Assembly: GCF_937906905.1 (NCBI RefSeq)
Contig: NZ_CALERY010000034.1
Span: forward strand, 10,401 to 74,400
DNA length: 64,000 bases
Direction: 5' to 3'
From: an uncultured Helicobacter sp.
GTDB lineage: Bacteria; Campylobacterota; Campylobacteria; Campylobacterales; Helicobacteraceae
Below, piece after piece: positions 2,932 to 16,787 of this stretch (position 1 is its first letter; every line of letters starts with the position of its first letter). Position numbers and translations under genes: made by a program. A model generated the notes under the pieces. It saw nothing but the letters and a program-made list of their open reading frames with translations, did not search any database and had not been told where the DNA came from.

Positions 2932-5900
2932 TTATTTCGCTACGCGCACAGCCTGCGCACTTGTGCGCGCGATAAAGTCGCTATCATACATGGCTTCGGC
3001 AAGCGCACCGCCTAGCACATATTCGCCCGTGAGTGTCGCGACACATTTGATATACACCACCTGTGATTTGCCAGAATCCACAAGCCCATTATCGAAGAAA
3101 AACATCACCCTATCGCGCAAGATATCCATATAATCCACGCGATCATTGGCTTTCATAAACGCCCTATCCCCTAGCGCCTCTTCCTTGTCCCTGCCGTTCT
3201 CTTGGCTATCGCTGCTTTGAGACTTGATTCTGGTGTTTTGGATTTCCCAGCCTGTTGGGATAATTTGGGTTAGTGCGAGATTTCTAGGCGATTTAGTCTG
3301 CGAAGTGTTTGTGATTTTTAGCTCGATGTAGAATTCATCGCCAAGCTTGATATTGCTAGGGTCAAGTGCCACTTCCTGCCCACTTTTGTCAATGGCAAAA
3401 ATCCGGCGCGATAGCTCTAGATTCTGCGATTTAGCAGGGATTGTGATTGGATTGACATCTGGCACACCTGTGCTAACTAGCGAGATATAGAGCTTGTCTT
3501 TAGCCTCCAGGGTATTTTTAGCATGAGGATCAAGCACAATGCTCATGCGCTTGTTTGTGGAGTATTCCTTGCCATTGAGGGTAAATCGCACGCCTTTGTC
3601 GCTAGAATCCGCACTCATGCTAAGTGCTAGCAGACTTGTGGCAATGTCTTGTGTGCCCAGCCAGCGCTCGTTTTCTAAAGTTTTGGCAATGGAGTGCAGC
3701 AGGGTAAGGTTTGGCGACTTATCGATGAGTGCGAGAAAATACGCACTCATGGCTTGGTTTGTCAATGCGCTACCATAGTAGTAATAGCGCGTATAGTAAT
3801 CCCACCTATCACTATAAGGCTTTTCATAGTGCTGCATATCTAGGAGATTTTCAGGCAGTTTGGCGCGGATTTCTTTAGCCACATCATCTAGCCCACTTAG
3901 CTTATAGCTCGCAGCAAGGCTTAGTTTCTCGCGCAAGGAGAGCTCTTTGAAGTGATAAGTATAAAGCTCATTCATCGCCGAGATATTTGGCGTGCCTTGG
4001 AGTGCTAGGAGAAACAGCGGGTATGCCTGCAGAGCCGGGGTAGAGCTAGATTGCACGCGTTTGGTGGCATAGGCGCTCCAGTTTTTGAGCACAGATTCTG
4101 GGACTTGATAGCCTTTTTGCTTGGCTAGGAGAAGAAAAAGCGCGGCATAGTCGCTACCATAGTCGCTAGTCTCATTAGAATCTATCCAGTAGCCAAACCC
4201 GCCATTCCCACGCTGGAATTTCACAATACGATTGATTGACCGCTGCACTCGCTCACGCACGATCTCTTCGCTCTGCTCTTTTGCGCCTTGGAGCCCTAGT
4301 AGTAGTGGCATAGTCGCAGAAACACTCTGCTCGATACAGCCATACATATAATGCAAGAGATACTCGACTTTGTCTTGATAGGAGAAAATCATCGATGGTG
4401 AGATGATGAGCTTTTGTGCGAGCGAGCCTTGGATATATTGCTGCTTGGCTTGGAGAGTCTTAGACTCTTTAGCATTGAGTGTGGAGAGCTCTTCGTCTGT
4501 TTGTGGTGGCAGAGGTGTGCTGATGTTTATGGCGTAGTGGTTGCTCTGTGTGATTGTTTGTTTTGCCACAGGAGCTTTTGCGCTATTTGTGCCACTCTTG
4601 GTAGAATCTACGCTAGATTCTGGCGATACTTCTACCTGGGCTTTCATGGTGATTGTGATATTGGCTTTGCCTATGGATTTTGGCGTGATAGCAAGGTATT
4701 GCATAAAGCGTTTGCGCTTGGGATCAAGGCTAGATTCTAGCTTTTTAACCGCGACATCGCCGCTTACTTGAATATCAACTTGACTTAGGCTTGCGCTATC
4801 TTGGGCGAGCACCTCCACAGGTGCGATGATTGTATCATCGCGCTTCATCTCCTCTGGGATATTGGAGTAGAGATTGGCGGGCTCGGCGATTGTTACATGA
4901 GATTCTGCATGTCCCACACTGCTCTCATCGCTTGCGATGAGCATGACACGCGCGCTGCCCACGAAGTTTGGCAGCTGATACTCTATAGTCGCTTTGCCGC
5001 TTTCATCGCTTACTCCGCTGGTGAAGTAGATGAGATTCTCGCGGCGCTTCTTGCTAAAATCTGCCGCCTGTCCCAGGCTCTCCTCATCTCCACCGATAAG
5101 CACACTTTGATGCACCACGCCAAATAGCCGCGCCATAAACTCGTCAAAATTATCATAGTGGATCGCTTCATCGTTGATTTTGCTATATAAGCCTTTGAGT
5201 GGGTTTGGCGTTTGGAAATTGATAATACGCAAAATCCCCTCATCAACCACCGCAAGCGTGTAAGCCATTTTGCGCTTTTTGGGGTTTTGGATTGTGATTT
5301 GGAGCTTGGAAGCTGGTTTTATGGATTCTGGTGCGATGATTTCAGGAGAGAGTGCTAGGGCTGGGTCTTGCACAGGGATACTAATCGTGCCAAAGCTTCG
5401 CTTGACTATCGCGGTTTTTCGCATATCTTGCTGTGTGTGCTTTTGCGATTTGTCAAAATCTTCGCCCGACTTATCTGGGTCTTTGGCTATGAGTGTCGCA
5501 CTTACATAGATGTTTGGCGCATATTCTTTTGTAAGCGGGATTTCATAGCTTGTTTGATTGCCAGAAATTTGGATCATCTCACTTTTTAGGATTGTATCGC
5601 CTTGGGTTAGCGTGATAATCGCCTTGCTAAAGCCTTTGGAGTTAAAGCGCACTATGGCTTTCTCGCCTGCTTCATAAGAAGATTTATCAAGCTCTAGGGG
5701 CAGCTGTGATGGGTTTGCCTTTATCGCAGCATCGCCATACGCATCTGCCACGAGCCAGACGATTTTAGGGGGATTGCTCCCATCATCTAGCTCGACAAAC
5801 ACAGAATCATAGTCCTCCACCAAGCTTGAAAGATCTTCGCGCAAGTTAAATGGCGCGCCCTTAGAAGTGATACTCCCCTCTTTTATAAGCGTGGTGTTAA

Positions 5901-8250
5901 TGTCGCTTTTGATTTTAGCATTGAAGTCTTTTTGCACATCATAGTCAAACCACCAGTAGCGATTGTTGCGGTAGATTTTGTAGCGGATTGATTTATCTGC
6001 GATTGGCTTGTCGGTAAATGGATTGAGCACGATGAGCGGAAGCTCAAGCGGAGCATGGAGTAAATCGACATAGTGCGGAATCTCGCCCACCCCGATAATA
6101 CTGCCTGTGCCAAAATACTGCACCGCAGCAGCGTTTGAGACAGGGTGTCCGGTGCTTTCAAGCACTTGCGCCCTAAGTGCCAGGCGCAAATGCTTATAGC
6201 TAGAATCTAGCTCGGCGAGATTAAAATTAAAGTGCGCTTTGCCACTTTCATCGAGCACACCATCAAAGCTTTTATCAAAGCGATAGGACTCGCTCTCACT
6301 CTGGGAGAAATCAAAGCCCTTATACGCCTTTGATTTGTAATCAAGCGGCGTGGCTTGGAGATTGAGCTTGTATTTTAGCCCTTGTGCGCTTGCCCCTGTG
6401 AGATACGCGCTTTGTATCGTCGCTTCTAGGTGCTTTTTGGCGTGGTCTAGGGATTTGGGCGCATCAATATCTACGCGGATTTTATTTGGCGTGATGTATT
6501 CGACTTGGAAGTTTTTGTAGAATTTCTCGCTTCCTATGCTAAATGCCGCGCGATAGCCCCCTGTGATGAAGCTTGTATCTGTGGCAAATGTATAGCTATA
6601 AAGCCCATAGCCTATGGGCTGGATAATCTGCTCGCTGATAATCTTGCTGCCACGCGGGTTAAAAATACTAAGCTTAATTGGTGCATTTTGTATCCGCTCA
6701 TCGCGCACAAGGACATTGAGCTGGATAGATTCCCCAGGATTGGCAATCCCCCTATCCGTGTAGGCAAACACCTTGCGTTTGCGCTTTTGCGCACCGCTTG
6801 TATCGCGCCCATCGTAAAATCTACTATCATAGTGAAGCCCTAGATAGCTGATCTCGCCGCCTTTGTCGCTAGATTCTGCGATTAAAATCGCAGGTTTTAG
6901 CGCAAAATCCCTAGAAGGCTCATTGTCCTTATCTTTGATGATTTGCCCGCCAAGTGCGGTGGATTTATAGGTGCTAAACTCCGCATAGCCGCCAGAATCT
7001 GTGCTCACAGATTCTATGAGTTTGTTTGAAGTGGAGTAGAGCGAGAGCTTTATGCCAGAGAGCGGCTCGCCCGTGGTGGAATCCAGCGCATAGGCGATGA
7101 GCTTATCCCCAGCCCTCTCTGCTACAAGCGCGACATTAGAGACGACAAGCAGTTTAATAGCACTTCTATATGCGTCTCCATTATCGTATTCTTCCCATTC
7201 ATTATCATTTGGGTAAATCTTATCCGCGCGCTTAGTGCGAAACTCCAGCACATACGCGCCTTGCTCGAGATCTTTGTCCAGCAGCTCACTTAGCACAAGC
7301 GCGGTTTGCACTTCATCTTTGCTAAGGTCAAAGGTAATTTCTTTCTCCCAGATTTTATCCATAGATGAGGTGTCAATATAGCTGCTATTTCTGGTGATAT
7401 ACTCGCGTATATTGCTATCACTGCGCAGATTCTCGGTGCTAAGCTTGTAGATAGCCAGTGTGCTTTTGCGGATATTGGTGCTTATCACACCGATTTTCAC
7501 ATCACGACTGCTAGCAAGCATACTGCCCTCTTGGGCAAACCGCAGGCTTGGGTAGAGACTTTTGCTTTGTAGCGTGATCTCCTCGCTTTCTATGGGGTGC
7601 TTGAATGTGAGTTTATAGGTTAGACCCGGTTCAAAATCCCCAGTAAGCGTGATTTTACTGCCCTGCACGAGTGCTTTTACCTGCGGCGCGTAGTTCCCAC
7701 TATATACGCGAATACTCCCCTGCGCCTTGGCAGAATCCAGCCCAATATCGCGATCGAGAAAAATCTCTATCGCCTTTTGCTTGCCATAGATTTTTGCATC
7801 AAGCACCTTAGCAGTATCGCCAGATTCTAGGGCGATGTTTGCGCTAGCTGTATCAAGCTTGATAAGCAGCTCTTTTTTGCCATTTGTCTTAGGAGTGTAA
7901 AGGAGATTCCACTCATGCTCACTTACTTGCTGGAGGCTAGCGAGCTTGCTATCCTTAGGCATAGGCGCAGAATCTATGGAGATTTTAGATTCTAGCTCGC
8001 TAGCACTTAGTGGCGTGTTGGTAAAGATTGGCAGCGAGATTTGCGTGCGATTCTCATCTTTGAGAGTGGTGAAAGTCGGCGTGCCAAACTCTGCGGCAAG
8101 CGCGTTTATCTGCGCTCTAGCAGAGCTTTTGGAGATTTGCACCCCAGCCGCAAGCGCAAGCGCGACAGCCACGATGAGTGCGAGCAGGACAAGGAGCTTT
8201 GACTTAGATAGCAGCGTAGGCTTGCTGGGCGTTTGAGCTGGATTTGACAT
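2932..8250 (-). CDS. bacterial alpha-2-macroglobulin family protein (thioester-containing, ECAM/YfhM-like)
   Basis: 1772-aa ORF with an N-terminal hydrophobic anchor. Thioester motif 'GCIEQ' sits in 'HYMYGCIEQSVSATMPLL'. Size and domain layout are typical of bacterial A2M. GGGGGAG SD lies upstream of the ATG at 8250. Confidence 0.9.
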   Translation of the reverse strand: MSNPAQTPSKPTLLSKSKLLVLLALIVAVALALAAGVQISKSSARAQINALAAEFGTPTFTTLKDENRTQISLPIFTNTPLSASELESKISIDSAPMPKDSKLASLQQVSEHEWNLLYTPKTNGKKELLIKLDTASANIALESGDTAKVLDAKIYGKQKAIEIFLDRDIGLDSAKAQGSIRVYSGNYAPQVKALVQGSKITLTGDFEPGLTYKLTFKHPIESEEITLQSKSLYPSLRFAQEGSMLASSRDVKIGVISTNIRKSTLAIYKLSTENLRSDSNIREYITRNSSYIDTSSMDKIWEKEITFDLSKDEVQTALVLSELLDKDLEQGAYVLEFRTKRADKIYPNDNEWEEYDNGDAYRSAIKLLVVSNVALVAERAGDKLIAYALDSTTGEPLSGIKLSLYSTSNKLIESVSTDSGGYAEFSTYKSTALGGQIIKDKDNEPSRDFALKPAILIAESSDKGGEISYLGLHYDSRFYDGRDTSGAQKRKRKVFAYTDRGIANPGESIQLNVLVRDERIQNAPIKLSIFNPRGSKIISEQIIQPIGYGLYSYTFATDTSFITGGYRAAFSIGSEKFYKNFQVEYITPNKIRVDIDAPKSLDHAKKHLEATIQSAYLTGASAQGLKYKLNLQATPLDYKSKAYKGFDFSQSESESYRFDKSFDGVLDESGKAHFNFNLAELDSSYKHLRLALRAQVLESTGHPVSNAAAVQYFGTGSIIGVGEIPHYVDLLHAPLELPLIVLNPFTDKPIADKSIRYKIYRNNRYWWFDYDVQKDFNAKIKSDINTTLIKEGSITSKGAPFNLREDLSSLVEDYDSVFVELDDGSNPPKIVWLVADAYGDAAIKANPSQLPLELDKSSYEAGEKAIVRFNSKGFSKAIITLTQGDTILKSEMIQISGNQTSYEIPLTKEYAPNIYVSATLIAKDPDKSGEDFDKSQKHTQQDMRKTAIVKRSFGTISIPVQDPALALSPEIIAPESIKPASKLQITIQNPKKRKMAYTLAVVDEGILRIINFQTPNPLKGLYSKINDEAIHYDNFDEFMARLFGVVHQSVLIGGDEESLGQAADFSKKRRENLIYFTSGVSDESGKATIEYQLPNFVGSARVMLIASDESSVGHAESHVTIAEPANLYSNIPEEMKRDDTIIAPVEVLAQDSASLSQVDIQVSGDVAVKKLESSLDPKRKRFMQYLAITPKSIGKANITITMKAQVEVSPESSVDSTKSGTNSAKAPVAKQTITQSNHYAINISTPLPPQTDEELSTLNAKESKTLQAKQQYIQGSLAQKLIISPSMIFSYQDKVEYLLHYMYGCIEQSVSATMPLLLGLQGAKEQSEEIVRERVQRSINRIVKFQRGNGGFGYWIDSNETSDYGSDYAALFLLLAKQKGYQVPESVLKNWSAYATKRVQSSSTPALQAYPLFLLALQGTPNISAMNELYTYHFKELSLREKLSLAASYKLSGLDDVAKEIRAKLPENLLDMQHYEKPYSDRWDYYTRYYYYGSALTNQAMSAYFLALIDKSPNLTLLHSIAKTLENERWLGTQDIATSLLALSMSADSSDKGVRFTLNGKEYSTNKRMSIVLDPHAKNTLEAKDKLYISLVSTGVPDVNPITIPAKSQNLELSRRIFAIDKSGQEVALDPSNIKLGDEFYIELKITNTSQTKSPRNLALTQIIPTGWEIQNTRIKSQSSDSQENGRDKEEALGDRAFMKANDRVDYMDILRDRVMFFFDNGLVDSGKSQVVYIKCVATLTGEYVLGGALAEAMYDSDFIARTSAQAVRVAK

Positions 8251-8289: not shown

Positions 8290-8302
8290 TTTTTTTTTTT
8301 TT
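8290..8302. repeat. homopolymeric T13 tract between divergent promoters
   Basis: Counted directly. It is flanked by TACAAT -10-like hexamers on both strands: revcomp of 8281..8286 facing the A2M gene, and 8321..8326 facing pbpC. Confidence 0.9.
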
Positions 8303-8368: not shown

Positions 8369-10663
8369 ATGAAGCCTAAACACATACGCGAAAAGCCCTT
8401 TATCCGCACCTTTGCCATACTTGCTTGCTTGATGTGCTTATGCGTAGGGGGCGCTATCCTTAGCGACACGAGCACGCTCACCTTTGAGCCAGAATCGCTA
8501 GTGAGCTTTGATAGAGATGGCGAGCTGCTAAGCTTTTTTGTCAATGAGCGCGACAACTTCAAAGTCAGCTTGCAGAGCCAAGATTTGCCAGCGCAGTTAC
8601 AGCAGTTTGTCCTACTCTATGAAGACAAGCGCTTTTTCACACATGCTGGGGTAGATCCCCTAGCCCTGGCACGCACGATTTGGGGTAATCTCGCCCACGC
8701 TAAGCGCCATGGCGCTAGCACAATCACCATGCAAGTAGCCAAGCTCGGCAGCCAGCAGAAGCGCACCTGGTGGAATAAATTCACCCAAACTCTGCAAGCC
8801 CTGCGCCTAGAGTGGCAAAAGGATAAGCCCCAGATTCTGCGCCTCTATCTTGATAACACCCCCTATGGCAGCAATATCGTTGGCGTGAAATCCGCCGCCC
8901 TGCTGTATTTCAAAAAGCCCTTGCATAGGCTCTCCCCTGCGCAAAATGCCCTACTAGCTATCATGCCAAACACGCCAAATCTTATTTTCACAAACCCAGC
9001 CAAACTCCTAGCCAAGCGCGATTCCCTGCTAAAGCGCGCGCTAGATTCTCATCTCATCACAGACATGGAGTATCGCCTAGCTCTCCTAGAGCCCCTGCCA
9101 ACCCTCTACCGCAGCAATTCAATCGCCCCGCACGCAAGCCTATGGCTCCCCCGCCACAACCCAGGCACCAAAGTCTTCCACACCACACTCCACAAGCCCA
9201 CCCAAGAGCTCCTAGAATCCAAGCTCCGCGAGTTTGCCACCATAATCCAAGACAAAGGCGTGCATAATCTCGCCGCACTCGTGCTTGATAGCCGCGATGG
9301 CGCGATTGTAGGCTATGCAGGCTCGCAGGATTTTTATGACTTAAGCAGCCTAGGCGCGATTGATGGCGTGCAAGCTGCGCGTAATGTCGGCTCCACGCTA
9401 AAGCCCTTTCTCTACGCGCTTGCACTAGATTCTGGGCTCATCATTCCCCAGACAAATCTCGCTGATAGCAATCAATTCTATGGGAATTTCAACCCACACA
9501 ACGCCTCGCGCAGATTCTACGGGAGCAAAAGCGCGCTGTTTTGCCTGCGAAACTCGCTAAACGCACCATTTGTCGCACTGCTGCAAGACTATGGCGTGGA
9601 AGAGTTTTTTTATTTCTTGCGTGCAAACGCGCCCTTTAGCGAGCGCGACTTCGCACAATATGGACTCTCACTAATCCTAGGCACCAAAGAGCTAAGTCTC
9701 TTTCAGCTTGCCAAGCTCTACTTAGGACTACGACATGGCGGGGATTTCTCCGCTACGCCACACGCACTAGCCAGAGCGACAAGCCCCGCAGATTCTAGCG
9801 CGATGACTTCTAGTGCGCTAGAGTCCAGCATGATAAGCCCACCAAAATCCACCCAAGTCCCCAGCAATCTCACACAAGACTACATCAATAATTCCACACA
9901 GACCAATTTTGGCATTTCTAAGGAAGCCGCCTATCTCACCCTGCAATCCCTGCTCAATCTCCCGCTAAACGCCCGCAGCTCCCGCTTCGCGCATAAAATC
10001 GCTTGGAAAAGCGGCACAAGCTTTGGAAATCGCGATAGCTGGGCGATTGGCATAAGCGATCGCTATGTCGTAGCGGTATGGGGCGGGAACTTCAGCGCAA
10101 AAGCAAGCGTGAATCTCACAGGCAGGGAAATCGCAGGGGTGGCTATGTTTGATATTTTTGAGCTACTTCATGGGGATAGTGTCAGTGAGTTTGGCAGCTG
10201 GGCGCAGGTAGGCAAATGGAGCAATACGCCCAAAATGCGCGAAGTGCGAATCGATACAAACGGCTACCGCGTGCAAGACCCTAGTGGCGGGGACTCCAGC
10301 AAGCAAGATTCTAGTAGCACCACCCCTAGCAGCAAAATCGCCTATATGCCCTACTATGCCAAGCCACTACGCACCGCCGCGCAAGCCCCACGCCCAAGCT
10401 CGATCATCGCCTACCCCACGCCTGGTATCCGCTTCTCGCGCGCTTCACTAGCAAGCATGCGTGATGAAAGCACCCAAGAAGACGGAGTCATCGCGCTATT
10501 GCAGCAAAAAACGCTTGCGTATTTTTTTCTCAATGGCGAGTTTATCGGCGCAAATGACCTTGGGCGCATGCGTCTATCTCCTAAAAATGGCACAAACTCG
10601 CTCTATGTCATCACGCAAAATGGGCAGAGCTCTAGCGTGGAGTTTGAAGTCCTAGCCCAGTGA
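8369..10663 (+). CDS. pbpC: penicillin-binding protein 1C (bifunctional glycosyltransferase/transpeptidase family)
   Basis: 764 aa. GT51 motif 'EDKRFFTHAGVDPLA...GASTITMQ', 'STLKP' transpeptidase motif, and a PBP1C-type C-terminal domain. Adjacent to A2M, as in many proteobacteria. Confidence 0.85.
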   Translation: MKPKHIREKPFIRTFAILACLMCLCVGGAILSDTSTLTFEPESLVSFDRDGELLSFFVNERDNFKVSLQSQDLPAQLQQFVLLYEDKRFFTHAGVDPLALARTIWGNLAHAKRHGASTITMQVAKLGSQQKRTWWNKFTQTLQALRLEWQKDKPQILRLYLDNTPYGSNIVGVKSAALLYFKKPLHRLSPAQNALLAIMPNTPNLIFTNPAKLLAKRDSLLKRALDSHLITDMEYRLALLEPLPTLYRSNSIAPHASLWLPRHNPGTKVFHTTLHKPTQELLESKLREFATIIQDKGVHNLAALVLDSRDGAIVGYAGSQDFYDLSSLGAIDGVQAARNVGSTLKPFLYALALDSGLIIPQTNLADSNQFYGNFNPHNASRRFYGSKSALFCLRNSLNAPFVALLQDYGVEEFFYFLRANAPFSERDFAQYGLSLILGTKELSLFQLAKLYLGLRHGGDFSATPHALARATSPADSSAMTSSALESSMISPPKSTQVPSNLTQDYINNSTQTNFGISKEAAYLTLQSLLNLPLNARSSRFAHKIAWKSGTSFGNRDSWAIGISDRYVVAVWGGNFSAKASVNLTGREIAGVAMFDIFELLHGDSVSEFGSWAQVGKWSNTPKMREVRIDTNGYRVQDPSGGDSSKQDSSSTTPSSKIAYMPYYAKPLRTAAQAPRPSSIIAYPTPGIRFSRASLASMRDESTQEDGVIALLQQKTLAYFFLNGEFIGANDLGRMRLSPKNGTNSLYVITQNGQSSSVEFEVLAQ

Positions 10664-10717
10664 AGTAGCACAATCCAGAATCCCCGGAATCCACTTTTTC
10701 AAATAACGCCCTTTTCT

Positions 10718-10785
10718 TGTCATATTGAGCCTTTAGGCGAAATATCTCCCGTCATTGCGAGCCGATGAAATCGGCGTGGCAATCC
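10718..10785 (+). repeat. REP-like structured repeat, copy a (two tandem half-units)
   Basis: 'tgtcatattgagc..gcgaaatatctc' followed by 'ccgtcattgcgag-ccgatGAAatcgg-cgtggcaatcc'. Conserved ends TCAYYRCRAG / CGTGGCAA surround a short hairpin. Confidence 0.6.
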
Positions 10786-10916
10786 ATAAACACAGCAAAA
10801 GTAAAGTAAATAAGCAAGTTTAAAGCAGATTAACACGCGTTAAGTAGGAGAGTTGAGTAAGACTAGCCCACCCCCTTAACGACCAAAGGCTTTTTCAAGG
10901 TAGGCTATGGATTATC

Positions 10917-10988
10917 CTAGTAGCACTTGACTACTACTATACATAGCAGTATAATGCCGACTAAGATTTTCTGGTAAATCTTACTCAT
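10917..10988 (-). CDS. candidate type I toxin: 23-aa hydrophobic peptide MSKIYQKILVGIILLCIVVVKCY
   Basis: Translated by hand. ATG at 10988, TAG at 10919..10917. Perfect SD AAGGAGG (revcomp of 10994..11000) sits 5 nt upstream. TGnTAGAAT extended -10 lies on the minus strand at 11059..11067. A 9-bp hairpin (11019..11043) sits in the putative 5' UTR. Confidence 0.4.
   Translation of the reverse strand: MSKIYQKILVGIILLCIVVVKCY
10927..10955 (+). promoter_or_regulatory. consensus sigma70-type promoter (TTGACT-N17-TATAAT) antisense to the small ORF; putative antitoxin sRNA promoter
   Basis: TTGACT at 10927..10932, a 17-nt spacer, then TATAAT at 10950..10955. A transcript from about 10962 would be complementary to the start codon and SD of the minus-strand peptide ORF. 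Confidence 0.4.
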
Positions 10989-11115
10989 CGTAACCTCCTT
11001 TGTGAAAAGTAGGCTACGCCAAGAGAGGCTGCAACTCTCTTGGGCAACCTCTACTGAAATTCTAACATACTTCCTAAATACTCCCTAGAATCCACTTTTA
11101 CTTAATCGTGTTTTT

Positions 11116-11170
11116 CCGTCATCACAAGATTTGCGTAGCAAATCGTGGCAAAGCAAGGCGCAGCCGCAGC
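11116..11170 (+). repeat. REP-like structured repeat, copy b (with GC-rich extension)
   Basis: 'ccgtcatcacaag-atttgcGTAgcaaat-cgtggcaaagcaaggcgcagccgcagc'. Same architecture as copy a. The 3' extension is repeated in inverted orientation at 14997..15021. Confidence 0.6.
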
Positions 11171-11203
11171 TTCTTTAGTAATCCAATCCCAAACATAAAT
11201 CTA

Positions 11204-11219
11204 TTTTTTTTTTTTTTTT
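11204..11219. repeat. homopolymeric T16 tract in the autotransporter promoter region
   Basis: Counted directly. It ends 9 nt upstream of a TACAAT -10-like box (11229..11234). Confidence 0.9.
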
Positions 11220-11276
11220 GATTTTGGCTACAATGTGGCTTTTTAAACTTTCACTTAACCTTTTTAAGGAGACATA

Positions 11277-14200
11277 ATGAAAACATCTACTCATAACACT
11301 GCCCCATATAAACGGGGGGGGGGGGGTAAATAATCTCTCTCTCAATGCTTCTACTAGATTCTCTCAAAAGGTTGCTTTATCTATCGCTTGTATCTCGTGC
11401 TTAAGTTTGACAAATCTCTATGCTATATGGCATCTAGATGCTGACAAAGGATTACAAAAAGGCTGTAAAGCTGAGATAATAAGTGGTCAAGCTTTTGTAA
11501 TTAGTCCCAAAGATGGTCAGGATAAATGTCAAGGGGACTGGACACGCTTTAGCACAAATGAAACAGGTGGAGGCTACACCCTAAGACTAAACAAGACTAC
11601 TTTAAATAACTATACTATTACAACATCTGTGGATTCAAGCAGGGTGTGGGCTAATGGTGTGCTCAATGGATCCACCATAGGGACGGCAAATATTGAAGGA
11701 AAGATGAGAGTTGAGCTTAGAGTAGAGAATGGAACCAGCACCATAACCACCCTAAATCATACAGCCAATCTACTACATCTAAAAGGTGGTGGCGGTAAGC
11801 TAGACATCAATACATTTAATCAAACCAGCGAGAATAGCGACACGCAAGTTTTCGATATAACAATAACAGACTTCAATCTTAGCGGTGGTAAAACACATCA
11901 GCTTGTAGGTGAGATTACCAACCTAAATATCACTAATGGGACATTCTATCAAGGTAAGCATAATGGCGACCCTAGTGGCTATAGTGATAGCCAAATCACA
12001 GGCGGCACTATCACAAAGGTGGATTTAAGCGGCAATGGTGCGTTTGAGCAAATTAGAGGCAGTGTAACTGACTTCAATCAGTCAGGCGGCACTGCCACGC
12101 AAAAAGGCGGCACGATAGGAACTGCCAATCTCAATGGCGGTAACTTTACCCAATCAGGTGGAGAGATCACTACTGCTAAACTCTCCGGTGGCACATTCAC
12201 CCACAATGGCGGCACACTTAACAATGTCGTGCTTAAAGCTGGTGGCAGTGGCAGCACATTTGTCAATGGCACAAATTCTGCCTTTGCTAACATCACCCAA
12301 GAGGGTGGCAATCACACTATCATAGGTAAGGTTGCTAAATTTACTCTAGCGAGTGGTTCCTTTACCAACAACGGCTCTATCGAAACACTCACCACCAGCA
12401 CTACCACCACAAGAGCCCTCCGCAATGCCCAAGCTGCCGCTACCAACCACATCACCAACAACGGCACAATCGACAAGCTAGAGCTTACTAAAGACGCTGA
12501 TAGCGTAACCAATAATGCTGTGTATAACACAGGCGGTGGCTTAGCAAGTGGTATCATCAAAGAGCTACATGTAACAAGCGGCAATGCCACCATAAACACC
12601 CTAAATGGTGTAGGACAAGGGACAGCAGGTAAAATAGAGCCCCATACACTCTCTAATATCAACATCACCAAAGACGCTAAACTCACCGTTGATACCCTAA
12701 GCGTAGGACTCAAAGGCAACCAAGCTATAGAGAGAGTAACAATAAATAATAATACAGGTGGTAATGGTGGCAACAAAGAATTTGCCGTCAATAAAATCCA
12801 AGTAACCTATCTTGATGGCAGCTTTGACCCTGCAAAAAGCATTAGCAAAAATCTCACAGACTATGTATCATCTGGCACCAGCCATAGCTATGTCGATAAC
12901 AATTCTAAGCCCACCTTTGAATCAAGCCCCGAGCTCCAAGGCATAGGTGTGAAGTTTAATCCCGATGGCACCCCTATCTTTGAGGTAGAAGCCTCCTTGG
13001 CTGCAAGTATGACAAGCGTAGTCGTGCGCCAATCTATGCGCCGAAAAATGCTTATAGACACCTATCTCGCAGAACAAAACAGAAGAAGTTTGAAAAACAA
13101 AGAGCGCAGAACCGAGCAGCGCATAGAAGCAGCCACCCTAGCAGATGCAAGAGCCCAGTATCAAAAAGACCTAGCCAAATACAAGCTAGACTTAGCCAAA
13201 TGGGATAAGCTTGCTAGCACCAAAGAGAACAAAGCCCTAATCGCCAAATACGAGCAAGAGGACAAAGCCTACCAAAAAGCCCTAGAGCAGTATCAAAAAG
13301 ACAAGGCAAAATGGGATAAGCTTAGTGAAAAAGATAAAGCAAAGCTTTCAGGCAGCCCCACACCAGCTCCCATAGCTCCTAAAGAGCCAAAAGCTCCTAT
13401 AAAGCCCAATGTCAAGCCAGATCACAAAGACTATAAAAAGCTAATGGCTGCCTATGATAAAGCACAAAAAGAGCATAAAAACGCCCTAGCCAAATATCAA
13501 AAAGATAAAGCCAAATACGACAAAGACAAAGCCAAATGGGATAAAGACAATCAAAAGCTAGCACAAGCTAGCAAACTAGCTCCAGTAGAGCCAAAAGCTC
13601 CTAAAGCTCCCGTGCGCCCAAATCTCAAGCCAAACCACAAAGACTACAAAAAGGCTATGGCAGATTTCACCAAAGCACAGCAAGCACACAAAGCAGCCCT
13701 AGCCAAGTATGAAAAAGATCTAGCCAAATACAAGCTAGACAAAGCCAAATGGGACAAAGACAATCAAAAGCTAGCTGCAAGCTCTAAGCCAGCTCCCATA
13801 GCTCCTAAAGAGCCAAAAGCTCCTATAAAGCCCAATGTCAAGCCAGATCACAAAGACTATAAAAAGCTAATGGCTGCCTATGATAAAGCACAAAAAGAGC
13901 ATAAAAACGCCCTAGCCAAATATCAAAAAGATAAAGCCAAATATGACAAAGACAAAGCCAAATGGGATAAAGACAATCAAAAGCTAGCACAAGCTGGCAA
14001 AGCCCCAGTAGAGCCTAAAGCTCCTACTAAGCCTAAAATCCTAGCCAGCAAGCCAGAAATGCCACAAGAGCCTAAGCTTGGAGAGATAAGTGCAGAGCTA
14101 CTAGCTAAGCATAAAGTCCAAGGGGATTTCTTTATCCGTGCCTATGGTGGGACAGGCTCACATAAAGCAACCAATGGCGCACAAACTAACTCTTGGAGTG

Positions 14201-14970
14201 TGGGCACACTCTTTGGCTCGACTTGGGATTTAGCGCTTGGACAAACAAGTGGGAATATCGGCTTCTATGGTGGGTATGAGTATATCTACAATGGCTATAA
14301 GCAAGCCCATATCGATGCCCAAGGACACACAGGCTTCCTAGGGCTTAGATTCTCCCATATCTTTGCTAAGACTAAGCTAGCAGGATTCTACTATATGGCT
14401 GATGTCAATGGTGGCTATAGTGATATGTCTGTAGGACAAGATATGAATGGTATGCGATTTAGTGCTAATGTAGGGAATATCAACTTTGGCTCATCATTGA
14501 GACTAGGCTCATCTGTGTATATGTATGGAAGCAAATCTATCCTCTTCCCTTCAGTTGGTGTAGGTGTAGAGGGTGGCTATCTAGGAGAGTTTGAGATGAG
14601 GACAGACCGCTCTGGTGAGCTACGCTATGGAGGACTAAGCCAAGGCTATGCTGTTACTTATGCCCAAGCAAATCTCAACTACTACCAAGAGTATGGCAAA
14701 AGGATTTCTACTACACTAGGTGGTGGATTTAGGTATCTAATGAATACAGATATAAACATTATGCCAACACTCAATGGCAAGGCTTATACCATTGATGAAA
14801 AGACAGGTAGAGCAGCAGCAGTGCATTTAGCACCATTTTTCTACCAAGGCACCTTTGTGATAAATTACCACACAGACAAAGCAGGAAACTTCTCTGCAGG
14901 CTATGTGGTAGTAGGTGGGGAGTTAGGGATTACGCATAATGCTTCTGTAAGGTGGCATTACTTTTTCTAA
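11277..14970 (+). CDS. phase-variable autotransporter-type outer-membrane protein (currently out of frame at a G13 tract)
   Basis: SD AAGGAG (11266..11271) precedes the ATG at 11277, giving MKTSTHNTAPYKRGGGGK*. With G12 the frame reads through to 'NNLSLNASTRFSQKVALSIACISCLSLTNLYA', a signal-peptide-like segment, and joins the long ORF listed as 11407..14970. The passenger domain has Gly/Thr/Asn-rich beta-helix-like repeats. The C-terminal roughly 300 aa look like a beta-barrel and end in '...WHYFF'. Confidence 0.75.
11314..11326 (+). repeat. homopolymeric G13 tract inside the 5' coding region of the autotransporter
   Basis: Counted directly (7+6 G across the 11320/11321 boundary). G12, G15 or G9 would put ATG 11277 in frame with the long ORF. 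Confidence 0.9.
13363..13995 (+). repeat. intragenic A-B-A repeat (213-bp / 71-aa units) encoding a Lys/Pro-rich segment
   Basis: 13363..13569 and 13789..13995 are 207 bp and identical except for one visible mismatch (tac/tat). The middle unit is a diverged copy. Peptide unit: 'PAPIAPKEPKAPIKPNVKPDHKDYKKLMAAYDKAQKEHKNALAKYQKDKAKYDKDKAKWDKDNQKLAQA'. Confidence 0.9.
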
Positions 14971-14996
14971 AAGGCGTTGGCTTTCTAAAGAAACCT

Positions 14997-15051
14997 GCTG
15001 CGGCTGCGCTTGCTTTGCCACGAAAATTCTTGCGGATTTTCTCGCAAGTGA
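14997..15051 (-). repeat. REP-like structured repeat, copy c (inverted relative to copy b)
   Basis: The reverse complement reads 'tcacttgcgag-aaaatccgcaagaatttt-cgtggcaaagcaagcgcagccgcagc'. It matches copy b over 'gtggcaaagcaag(g)cgcagccgcagc' with one indel. Confidence 0.6.
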
Positions 15052-15105
15052 GAGAGATGGGGCGTAAGGCTAGAATCTGCGCTTTGGGACTCTTTGTAGC
15101 TATGC

Positions 15106-15828
15106 TTAAGAGTCTTTGGTAGATTTTCTAGCGTGGGCTAGGATATTGAGCAGCTCCACGCCAAGTGAGAAAAACATCGCAAAATACACATAGCCACGCG
15201 GGATTTCAAAGTGAAGCCCATCGGCAAGCAGCACAATGCCAACGATGAGTAAAAATGCTAGGGCTAGAATCTTTAGCGTGGGGTAGGTGTCGATAAACTT
15301 TGAAATAACTTCAGCGGCAAACATCATCATAAGCACTGCGATGATGATAGCCAAAACCATGACTTCCAAATGTTCTGCCATACCCACAGCGGTGATGACA
15401 GAATCTAGCGAGAAGACAATATCGATGATCCCTATTTGCACAATCGTGCTAAAAAGCCCGGCATGCTTGCTCTTTATGGTGTGGGATTCTGGCGCGTGGG
15501 TGATGTGGTTGTGGATTTCTTGCACGCTTTTATACATAAGAAAAAGCCCCCCGGTGATAAGTACAATATCGCGCCCAGAGATAGCAAGCCCAAGCACGCT
15601 AAAAAGCGGCGCTGTAAGCTTGGTAATCCAAAAAAGCGCACCAAGCAGGGCAATGCGCGTGATAAGCGCGAATCCTAGCCCTAGAATCCGTGCTTTGCGC
15701 TGCTGGTGCTTAGGCAGTCTTGCGACTAAAATAGCTAGGAAGATGAGATTATCCACGCCTAGCACGATTTCTAGCAGCACTAGTGTGAGCAGGGAAGCCC
15801 ATACTTGCGGGTCAGCGAGCAGTGCCAT
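15106..15828 (-). CDS. TerC-family integral membrane protein
   Basis: 240 aa, polytopic. 'LLEIVLGVDNLIFLAI' and a second 'DIVFSLDSVITAVG' repeat are characteristic of TerC/YoaE-type proteins. Confidence 0.75.
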   Translation of the reverse strand: MALLADPQVWASLLTLVLLEIVLGVDNLIFLAILVARLPKHQQRKARILGLGFALITRIALLGALFWITKLTAPLFSVLGLAISGRDIVLITGGLFLMYKSVQEIHNHITHAPESHTIKSKHAGLFSTIVQIGIIDIVFSLDSVITAVGMAEHLEVMVLAIIIAVLMMMFAAEVISKFIDTYPTLKILALAFLLIVGIVLLADGLHFEIPRGYVYFAMFFSLGVELLNILAHARKSTKDS

Positions 15829-16787
15829 TATAGCCAGCCCTTTTTCTTAAAGTAGATGATGGGAATGACGGTGGAGATGATCATCACCACGATGACTAGC
15901 GGATAGCCAAATTCCCACTCAAGCTCGGGCATGTATTTGAAGTTCATTCCATAAATCGTGCCAACAAGTGTGGGGGGCATCATCGCCATAGTCGCCACGG
16001 TAAAAAGCTTGATAATCTTGTTTTGCTCGATATTGACACGGCTGGCAAAGAGGCTTTGGGTATTATCGAGCATATTGAGATTGACGGTGGTAAATTCTAC
16101 AAGTGAGTTTAAGTCCTTTAGCACGATACTTAGGTCCTTTTTGATCTCAGGATCGACTTTGTAGCTTTTGAGCAGTGCTGTAATGGCACGCCGCTTGTCA
16201 AAGAGCGAGTCGCGCACGCTAAGGTTAAACTCCTGCAAGTTTGAGAGCTTGGCGAGCTGGGCGGTGTGATCGCTTGCTTCTTCGTCAAAGACCGCTTTGC
16301 GCAGTAGCTTGGTAAGCTGCGCTGCTCCTTCTAGCATATCGGCATCTTGCTCCACACGCACTTCAAAGATTTTACTGATGAGATCAAAGCCATCTTCAAA
16401 ATTTTTGGGGCTGATAAGCACGCTTTGCTGGATTTCGTTAAATACTTTGAAATCTGCGTAGCGAATGGTAAAAAGTATGCCTTGAAAGAGAATGAAAGTA
16501 ACGGTTTCGTTGTGCAAATCCATTGTAGTGGAGCGCATGAGAAAATAGGTGTTTATCGTAATGCTTTGGGTGTCTTCAAAATACCGCGCGGACTGCTCAA
16601 TCTCCTCTCGCTCTTCTTTTGTAGGGATATCGAGTGCGTAGGTTTGGGCGATGTAGGAGACTTCAGCGCTCGATGGGCGCAATAAATCGATCCACAGCAC
16701 GCCTTGGGGGAGTGCTAGGCTCTCTGCGCTGCTGATATCTTTTCTACAAACTGCGCCATCTTTTTTGAAAAACACATTCATCATCAC
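15828..16787 (-). CDS. corA: magnesium/cobalt transporter CorA
   Basis: 319 aa. Signature 'YGMNF' lies before the two C-terminal TM helices. Confidence 0.9.

Follow-up and report, generated by a model that had tools for sequence, protein, structure and literature searches.

The gene considered here lies on the forward strand of a 64-kb window (the whole stretch of DNA analysed, 64,000 nucleotides (nt) of contig NZ_CALERY010000034.1, 46% G+C) of an uncultured Helicobacter sp. It encodes a predicted type Va autotransporter and carries two long homopolymers: a run of 16 T residues (T16) in its putative promoter at 11204-11219, and a run of 13 G residues (G13) at 11314-11326, which covers codons 13-17 of the leader. 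Homopolymers of at least nine bases occur four times in the window, as C12 at 2086, T13 at 8290 and the two tracts of this gene. In dinucleotide-preserving shuffles, the expectation was 0.00 for G runs of at least 10 bases (100 shuffles) and 0.07 for T runs of at least 12 bases. Both tracts lie far outside what chance would produce.

The leader opens with the Shine-Dalgarno sequence AAGGAG (11266-11271), located 5 nt before ATG 11277; the former is invariant in a nine-locus alignment and the latter across the family loci described below. With 13 G residues, the frame of this ATG is a dead-end open reading frame (ORF) of 18 codons at 11277-11333 (MKTSTHNTAPYKRGGGGK), terminated by TAA at 11331-11333. 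The frame of 1187 codons behind the tract is open from 11281, and its earliest ATG, GTG or TTG is TTG 11407. When the tract was replaced in silico by G9, G12 or G15, a predicted signal peptide of about 49 residues was joined to the 1187-codon ORF, giving fused proteins of 1229, 1230 and 1231 amino acids (aa), respectively, while the remaining lengths between 9 and 16 gave just 16-19 aa. The original prediction, made from the letters of this stretch, had placed T16, TACAAT, AAGGAG, the ATG, G13 and the stop codon at 11331 correctly, as confirmed by direct reading and by script, and its claim that G9, G12 or G15 would open the frame into the long ORF was borne out by the tract replacement. G13 is accordingly the proposed site of ON/OFF slippage.

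By inspection, the in-frame leader consists of a basic n-region, a hydrophobic core of 13 residues and an inferred cleavage site between ...LYA and IW. The core and c-region (VALSIACISCLSLTNLYA, 11371-11424, forward strand) are read solely with the tract in frame, and the top Kyte-Doolittle window of 12 residues in the core reaches 2.25. In its length of 49 aa the leader resembles the extended signal peptides of autotransporters. A lipoprotein reading of the string LSIAC was rejected, since the hydrophobic stretch before the Cys comes to just 6 residues after Lys31 and the Cys is not kept in paralogues. TTG 11407 corresponds to Leu44 of the fused protein and is not preceded by a Shine-Dalgarno sequence. 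A product started there would, as had been predicted, be without an export signal, because this codon is placed past the hydrophobic core (V32-L44).

The encoded protein

Sequence searches against Pfam, NCBIfam and the PDB with the 1187-aa ORF, its C-terminal 311 aa and the passenger gave no significant match. The Autotransporter beta-domain profile PF03797 did not match the protein even at E = 10, and no Pfam match was obtained to PF01856 (HP_OMP), the profile of the Helicobacter Hop/Hor proteins. An exhaustive phmmer search with the C-terminal domain against 1.84 billion representative proteins returned 16 matches alone, and the domain is therefore lineage-restricted. Two of its distant relatives, P0074 and P0071 (24-26% identity), do score above the PF03797 threshold (42.8 and 40.5 bits; cut-off 26).

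The AlphaFold2 model of the last 311 aa (mean predicted local distance difference test score (pLDDT) 80, predicted template-modelling score (pTM) 0.74) consists of a short helix followed by about 12 long strands, the linker helix (model residues 17-26) standing directly before strand 1. In a Foldseek search of this model against the PDB, the best 17 matches were all type Va translocators, namely EstA, NalP, EspP, AaaA, Hbp, AIDA-I and BrkA, with E between 1e-12 and 1e-8 and TM-scores of up to 0.76; the barrel fold thus matches autotransporters and not Hop-like proteins. The C-terminal aromatic residue, which is the recognition motif of the beta-barrel assembly machinery, is present (...RWHYFF), and this ending is kept in the family. 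The linker helix and 12-strand beta-barrel occupy 14083-14967. As the fold agrees with type Va translocators though the PF03797 profile fails, the protein was filed as a divergent type Va member. Based on the structural model and on transitive homology, the gene product is predicted to be a type Va autotransporter missed by annotation pipelines. The assignment made in the original prediction is upheld in this way, whereas sequence libraries do not support it.

The predicted passenger domain at 11425-13104 is all-beta and solenoid-like, with a hypervariable distal and a conserved proximal part. Its AlphaFold2 model (560 aa, pLDDT 82, pTM 0.79) contains many short strands. Foldseek matches to it were not significant (best E = 0.098) and were enriched for beta-helical passengers of type V proteins, namely Hap, SepA, IgA1 protease, EspC, VacA, EspP and Hbp.

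The junction of passenger and barrel is formed by 3.1 tandem copies of a 213-bp unit at 13364-14026, with Lys/Pro-rich segments and helical repeats. The three 71-aa repeats encoded there combine a Pro/Lys-rich part, APxEPKAPxKPNxKP, with a Lys-rich helical part, YQKDKAKWDKD... In the libraries they matched nothing but streptococcal antigen I/II, without significance (E = 0.09); the A and P regions of that protein form a stalk. The repeats may serve as a stalk or spacer between passenger and barrel.

Gene family, tract lengths and promoter

With the G12-repaired protein as query, 66 homologues were found. Essentially all of them belong to the Helicobacter canis group (here the uncultured Helicobacter sp., H. 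canis and H. zhangjianzhongii/XJK30-2) and to H. cinaedi, with several per genome; otherwise weak Campylobacter matches were obtained. The identical NCBI protein (P0001) is called from an internal Met and has 1088 aa, and many other family gene calls are likewise shortened. About a dozen homologues start with M-x(9-12)-[R/H/N]-G(3-6)-(V)NNLSL..., which represents a translated poly-G tract. A metagenome scan with the leader pattern (at least 8 G, then T(A)AATAATCTCTCT) gave three contigs, all unrelated, and exact-sequence look-ups of the TerC of the window and of P0001 gave no match.

The tracts were measured at 12 loci, that is, the window and 11 further loci with retrieved DNA. Besides the window (T16, G13, OFF), these include L001 of H. 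canis CCUG 32756T (T14, G19), which is ON with the same leader and signal peptide as the window, and L009 of H. zhangjianzhongii XJK30-2 (T13, G13, OFF). Three are from the assemblies ERZ27273242 (L003; T14, G13), ERZ27273522 (L023; T13, G10) and ERZ27273549 (L024; T14, G17), all OFF. Five loci come from ERZ27273340, of which L019 (T15, G15), L020 (T14, G13), L021 (T15, G14) and L002 (A14, G11) are OFF and L022 (A15, G12) is ON. The last one, L005 from bin126 of the metagenome-assembled genome SRS10476996, has no promoter tract and is OFF with G13.

The G tract is found at the same leader position in all 12 loci, with lengths of 10, 11, 12, 13 (five times), 14, 15, 17 and 19. Two of the loci (L001 and L022) are ON. 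The other ten are OFF, each one base off ON and followed, past the tract, by an intact ORF exceeding 1090 codons; such single-base slips in front of intact ORFs are a signature of reversible switching and not of decay. Small indels just 3' of the G tract (TAAATAAT, AAATAAT or TATAAT) alter which lengths are in frame. Two comparisons bring out the length polymorphism most directly. Within one genome, L002 and L022 have near-identical promoters and leaders and differ as A14/G11 (OFF) versus A15/G12 (ON). L003 and L023, from two strains, share one chromosomal site (in the order S15, Na/H antiporter, family gene) and read T14/G13 versus T13/G10. No in-frame start codon whatsoever occurs between the G tract and the signal-peptide core in 10 of the 12 loci, and none preceded by a Shine-Dalgarno sequence in 11; the exception is L022, which contains a long insert of repeat origin and an internal ATG lacking a Shine-Dalgarno sequence. 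The poly-G switch proposed for the leader in the original prediction is thus strongly supported by comparison: the same ATG, leader and tract recur in 12 loci over the range G10-G19, and in the H. canis type strain the leader is in frame.

Leaving L005 aside, which is more divergent over the whole protein than the other paralogues, the identity of the window protein to its paralogues is 9-44% in the distal passenger, 74-95% in the proximal passenger and 76-99% in the barrel. This sequence profile fits a variable-antigen family. The C-terminal part of about 300 aa (14035-14967 in the window) is near-identical among paralogues both within and between genomes (76-99%). A scan of reference genomes for the family yielded 11 loci, mostly fragments, and in the drafts of H. 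canis and H. zhangjianzhongii many contigs end inside the C-terminal domain. Near-identical C-termini, together with contig ends at this place, imply concerted evolution or gene conversion.

Upstream of the leader, T16 ends 9 nt before TACAAT (11229-11234), the putative -10 hexamer within the conserved promoter core GATTTTGGCTACAATGTGGCT (11220-11240); if TACAAT is the -10 element, the tract extends over roughly -37 to -22, counted from the putative start site. The core is identical in the window, L001, L003, L009, L023 and L024, while the hexamer reads TAGAAT in L020 and TATAAT in L021. Within the hexamer only base three varies, as would be expected if it functions as a -10 element, and the assignment is supported by phylogenetic footprinting. 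In seven loci including the window, a T13-T16 tract stands 8-9 nt before the conserved TA(C/G/T)AAT; GATTTTG(G)CTA(C/G/T)AATG follows the tract in every case, with AAGGAG and ATG at fixed distance. The invariant blocks of the alignment are the T tract, GCTAnAATG, AAGGAG, the ATG and the G tract. A generic scan for sigma-70 promoters missed this one, as a TTGACA-like -35 box is lacking; with a spacer of 17 nt, the -35 hexamer would be TTTTTT within the T run. T16 as the tail of an intrinsic terminator was rejected, as it has no preceding stem and the scan found 0 terminators.

Since the 3' edge of the T tract is fixed relative to the -10 element, changes in T length cannot alter the -35/-10 spacing. 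With moderate confidence, the length of the tract is taken to shift upstream DNA relative to the core promoter, so that it would act as a rheostat and not as a spacer-length switch. For the promoter tract, the original prediction is therefore retained as to its position and is strengthened by the conserved -10 element and the T13-T16 polymorphism, while its placement in the spacer and -35 zone is refined into a rheostat model like that of sabA of H. pylori. Homology of the window to L001 and L003 begins precisely at the T tract, which is therefore also a mosaic junction.

Proposed switching and alternative explanations

Taken together, it is likely that the gene encodes a type Va autotransporter from a multi-copy family of the H. 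canis group, with a poly-G ON/OFF switch and level control by the T tract. This proposal builds on the sequence anatomy, the autotransporter fold, the conservation of tract position and the length polymorphism between loci and strains. Translation would begin at ATG 11277 behind the strong Shine-Dalgarno sequence, and twelve codons on the message would cross the poly-G tract ahead of the signal-peptide core. Slipped-strand mispairing in replication would alter the length of the tract. With G12 or G15 the leader would be fused to the signal peptide and the 1187-codon body, and the protein would be exported (ON); with G13 translation would stop after 18 codons (OFF). The length of T16 most likely modulates the amount of transcript, presumably by changing how far upstream DNA stands from the core promoter and the helical phase of the two. 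Every paralogue appears to have its own cassette of promoter, leader and tract, from which it would follow that antigenically distinct passengers are expressed in changing combinations and amounts within a cell population.

Several points weigh against this proposal. The 13 G residues were counted in a single assembly, of metagenome type, from an uncultured Helicobacter sp., and long G runs are error-prone on short-read and nanopore platforms. A second assembly of the same strain (L004, GCA_963557195.1), recovered via a look-up of the PBP that found this strain alone, has 0 mismatches over 8.3 kb and T16 too, and its contig ends at the base directly before the G tract. The assembler could not cross the tract, and the count of 13 may be one base off or hide a mixture; such a break is expected for a heterogeneous or hard-to-read tract. 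Exactly 13 G residues are read in five of the 12 tracts, and the way in which assemblers handle long G runs may account for part of this. The earlier description of the gene as currently OFF consequently holds for the sequence as assembled and is uncertain by one base. A plain miscount, by which the gene would be mostly G12 or mixed and its OFF state an artefact, is nevertheless rather unlikely, and the locus could still be phase-variable if it were true. The NCBI call of the identical protein also starts downstream, suggesting that the deposited record is out of frame too; the G13 loci stem from different projects and need different lengths for ON; and polished long-read genomes give other lengths, from 10 to 17. 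The tract differences observed are differences between strains and between paralogues, and the ratio of two ON to ten OFF loci is biased because sampling was mostly from gene calls that begin downstream of the leader. A near-consensus sigma-70-like promoter further upstream on the same strand, TTGACT-17-TATAAT (10927-10955), could also supply read-through transcripts into the gene. Ten of 12 loci out of frame could also indicate a decaying pseudogene, frameshifted by chance in a homopolymer and not reversible, and in Campylobacter, autotransporter genes are documented to have decayed in particular lineages (PMC7168839). This is improbable, as the tract is the only lesion in front of 1187 open codons, all OFF paralogues keep their ORFs of more than 1090 codons, the Shine-Dalgarno sequence, ATG, leader and signal peptide are conserved, and ON copies with the same leader exist (L001 and L022). 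Least probable is translation from TTG 11407 or another internal codon, with the ATG and G tract being an unrelated short upstream ORF. The mechanical ORF list begins at this TTG and public gene calls such as P0001 begin still further downstream; against this, the TTG has no Shine-Dalgarno sequence and lies past the hydrophobic core, so that a beta-barrel protein of the outer membrane would have no export signal, the frame from the tract to 11407 specifies a signal peptide that diverged paralogues retain in function, and H. canis reads the same leader in frame.

For the T tract, the alternative is that T16 is a mere T-rich upstream element, as is typical of Campylobacterota promoters without a -35 box, required for promoter strength but neutral in its length, so that the G tract would be the sole switch. 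The fixed distance between the 3' edge of the tract and the -10 element, which leaves the -35/-10 spacing unaltered by length, is compatible with this, as is L005, in which a similar -10 element (TGGCTAAAAT) stands without a long tract. Furthermore, the other six T-tract promoters share a conserved AT-rich region upstream, to which the sequence 5' of T16 in the window bears no relation, and the UP-like partner of any rheostat is therefore not conserved here. On the other side, a perfect run of 13-16 T residues far exceeds what a promoter needs and is itself hypermutable, two strains differ in its length at one chromosomal site (T14 versus T13), as do near-identical promoters of a single genome (A14 versus A15), and H. 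pylori tracts of like size and position modulate promoter output (PMC4081817). A neutral tract is thus considered doubtful, to about the same degree as the miscount of the G tract, and level control by the T tract is kept as part of the proposal.

The gene order around the paralogues shows differences as well. In the window (11277-16787), the family gene adjoining TerC-CorA-PGK is convergent with TerC, while in L009 (H. zhangjianzhongii) and L019 (ERZ27273340) it is co-directional with TerC and downstream of it. L003 and L023 have their upstream neighbours in common and differ in their downstream neighbours. As judged from these arrangements, inversions or rearrangements with breakpoints at paralogues are suggested. 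The inverted orientation relative to L009 and L019, the one-sided flank difference between L003 and L023 and the mosaic junction at the T tract point to a wider reading, which is possible but somewhat less likely than the contrary: genome-wide combinatorial surface variation, in which at least five paralogous autotransporters per genome share a portable cassette of T/A-tract promoter, leader and poly-G tract and a near-identical 3' translocator. The tracts would then give each paralogue independent ON/OFF and level control. The 5' and 3' ends common to the copies would drive gene conversion at the hypervariable passenger tips, and even inversions of the chromosome between one copy and another. 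Such a system would couple phase variation to antigenic variation, as in Neisseria Opa or Chlamydia Pmp. We know of no description of coupled variation of this kind for enterohepatic Helicobacter.

Neighbouring features and comparison with known systems

Short intergenic repeats (e.g. CTAGAATCCAC and ...CGTGGCAATCC...) surround the paralogues, at 10700-11200 in the window, at 2500-2720 in L003 and at 4050-4400 in L022. When translated, they give strings such as MDCHA and SLRALAQDKARQS. In L022, P0006 and P0030, the repeats separate the G tract from the signal peptide without breaking the frame, producing N-terminal extensions of more than 100 aa.

A hydrophobic ORF of 23 aa (MSKIYQKILVGIILLCIVVVKCY) is located on the reverse strand at 10917-10988 behind a strong Shine-Dalgarno sequence (AAAGGAGG). 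The sigma-70-like promoter at 10927-10955 of the forward strand (11 of 12 consensus matches) is antisense to this ORF and overlaps it. The peptide is kept with 0-1 substitutions upstream of the family genes in L002, L009 and L022 and unchanged in L004. Around it, a block of about 265 bp (approximately 10834-11099) is 84-89% identical in L002, L005 and L009. From its sequence, the region looks like a type I toxin-antitoxin module of the AapA/IsoA type that may travel with the autotransporter cassette.

The two remaining homopolymers of the window are associated with other genes. The C12 run at 2086-2097, which is G12 on the coding reverse strand, makes a second candidate for a poly-G contingency gene. 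It splits a sulfatase-family membrane protein into two reverse-strand ORFs (2064-2876 and 1063-1872), the downstream piece of which contains PF00884 and has a weak OpgB-like NCBIfam match. With G10 or G13 this gene would encode 603/604 aa, while G12 leads to a stop at 270 aa. The T13 run at 8290-8302 lies in the 118-bp divergent intergenic region between an alpha-2-macroglobulin-like gene (2932-8250, reverse strand) and a PBP1C-like gene (8369-10663, forward strand). T13 is also its length in L004, and it could be a further promoter tract.

H. canis and related species belong to the enterohepatic helicobacters and are zoonotic, and to our knowledge almost nothing has been described of their colonisation factors. 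The present analysis identifies a multi-copy autotransporter family which standard domain libraries miss, and whose genes are shortened or labelled hypothetical in public annotations since the poly-G tract conceals where they truly start. A further result is a rule for reading the ON/OFF state of each copy, so that expression states can be scored from genomes. The members of the family are candidate adhesins or antigens. As to mechanism, the gene adds one more case of stacked simple-sequence repeats, controlling level and ON/OFF state, on a surface-protein gene, and no new principle: poly-G-controlled autotransporters are already known in Campylobacterota, and stacked promoter and coding repeats in Helicobacter (sabA). 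The most interesting aspect is the picture at the level of the family, with a portable cassette, concerted 3' ends and rearrangements at paralogues.

Comparable arrangements exist in other phyla. In Neisseria meningitidis, homopolymer slippage likewise switches NalP and MspA ON and OFF through poly-C tracts, and porA combines a promoter poly-G with a coding poly-A tract; in contrast to the tract of the window gene, the promoter tracts of this species are placed in the -35/-10 spacer and act through spacing. The Pmp proteins of Chlamydia pneumoniae are also multi-copy autotransporters, individual members of which have poly-G tracts that are variably in frame, but the proteins and lifestyle are unrelated and there is no promoter tract.

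Among enterohepatic helicobacters, the autotransporter adhesin HcaA of H. cinaedi has homologues in H. canis. It is encoded by a single-copy gene and has 1,835 aa with a signal peptide of 27 aa, and homopolymeric tracts are mentioned 0 times in the paper describing it (PMC10732068). HcaA was rejected as a known homologue, being a different, larger, single-copy protein; the H. cinaedi member of the window family is Hc94105_1205 (P0049). A literature search found no description of the family or of its tracts in H. canis.

A close parallel for the combination of tracts is sabA of H. pylori, where a T tract near or over the -35 region tunes transcription and a 5' coding CT repeat switches the gene ON and OFF; other outer-membrane protein genes of H. 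pylori carry tracts at, over or near -35 (PMC4081817). Like sabA (and sabB, hopD, hofA and hopM), the window gene is an outer-membrane gene of the same genus with stacked simple-sequence repeats and a tract on the T13-T18 scale. SabA, unlike the window protein, is a porin-like adhesin of the Hop family, CT dinucleotides and not G residues make up the repeat in its coding region, and an effect of T length has been demonstrated for sabA but is a predicted one for the window gene.

A close parallel for the type of protein is found in Campylobacter jejuni and C. coli, whose CapC and CapD (also CapA and CapB) are Campylobacterota type Va autotransporters with a homopolymeric G tract. This tract is in the putative promoter of capC and within the capD coding sequence, and the two proteins have a conserved signal peptide and barrel with a divergent passenger and occur in intact and inactive forms (PMC7168839). 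Sequence similarity of the window family to Campylobacter proteins is marginal, with about 25% identity over the barrel for P0065 and P0066, the latter being from Campylobacter upsaliensis (E = 4e-4). The distant barrel relative P0065 (ENA, 881 aa) begins with MQKFQPNSHTRGGGGVTHMSSKKPLLSLVCIFALACVVEA, and the poly-Gly leader before the signal peptide may, judging by this N-terminus, extend to Campylobacter autotransporters. Unlike in CapC and CapD, the coding poly-G of the window family precedes the signal-peptide core within the leader, T residues make up the promoter tract, both tracts are combined on one gene, and the family comprises at least five paralogues per genome.

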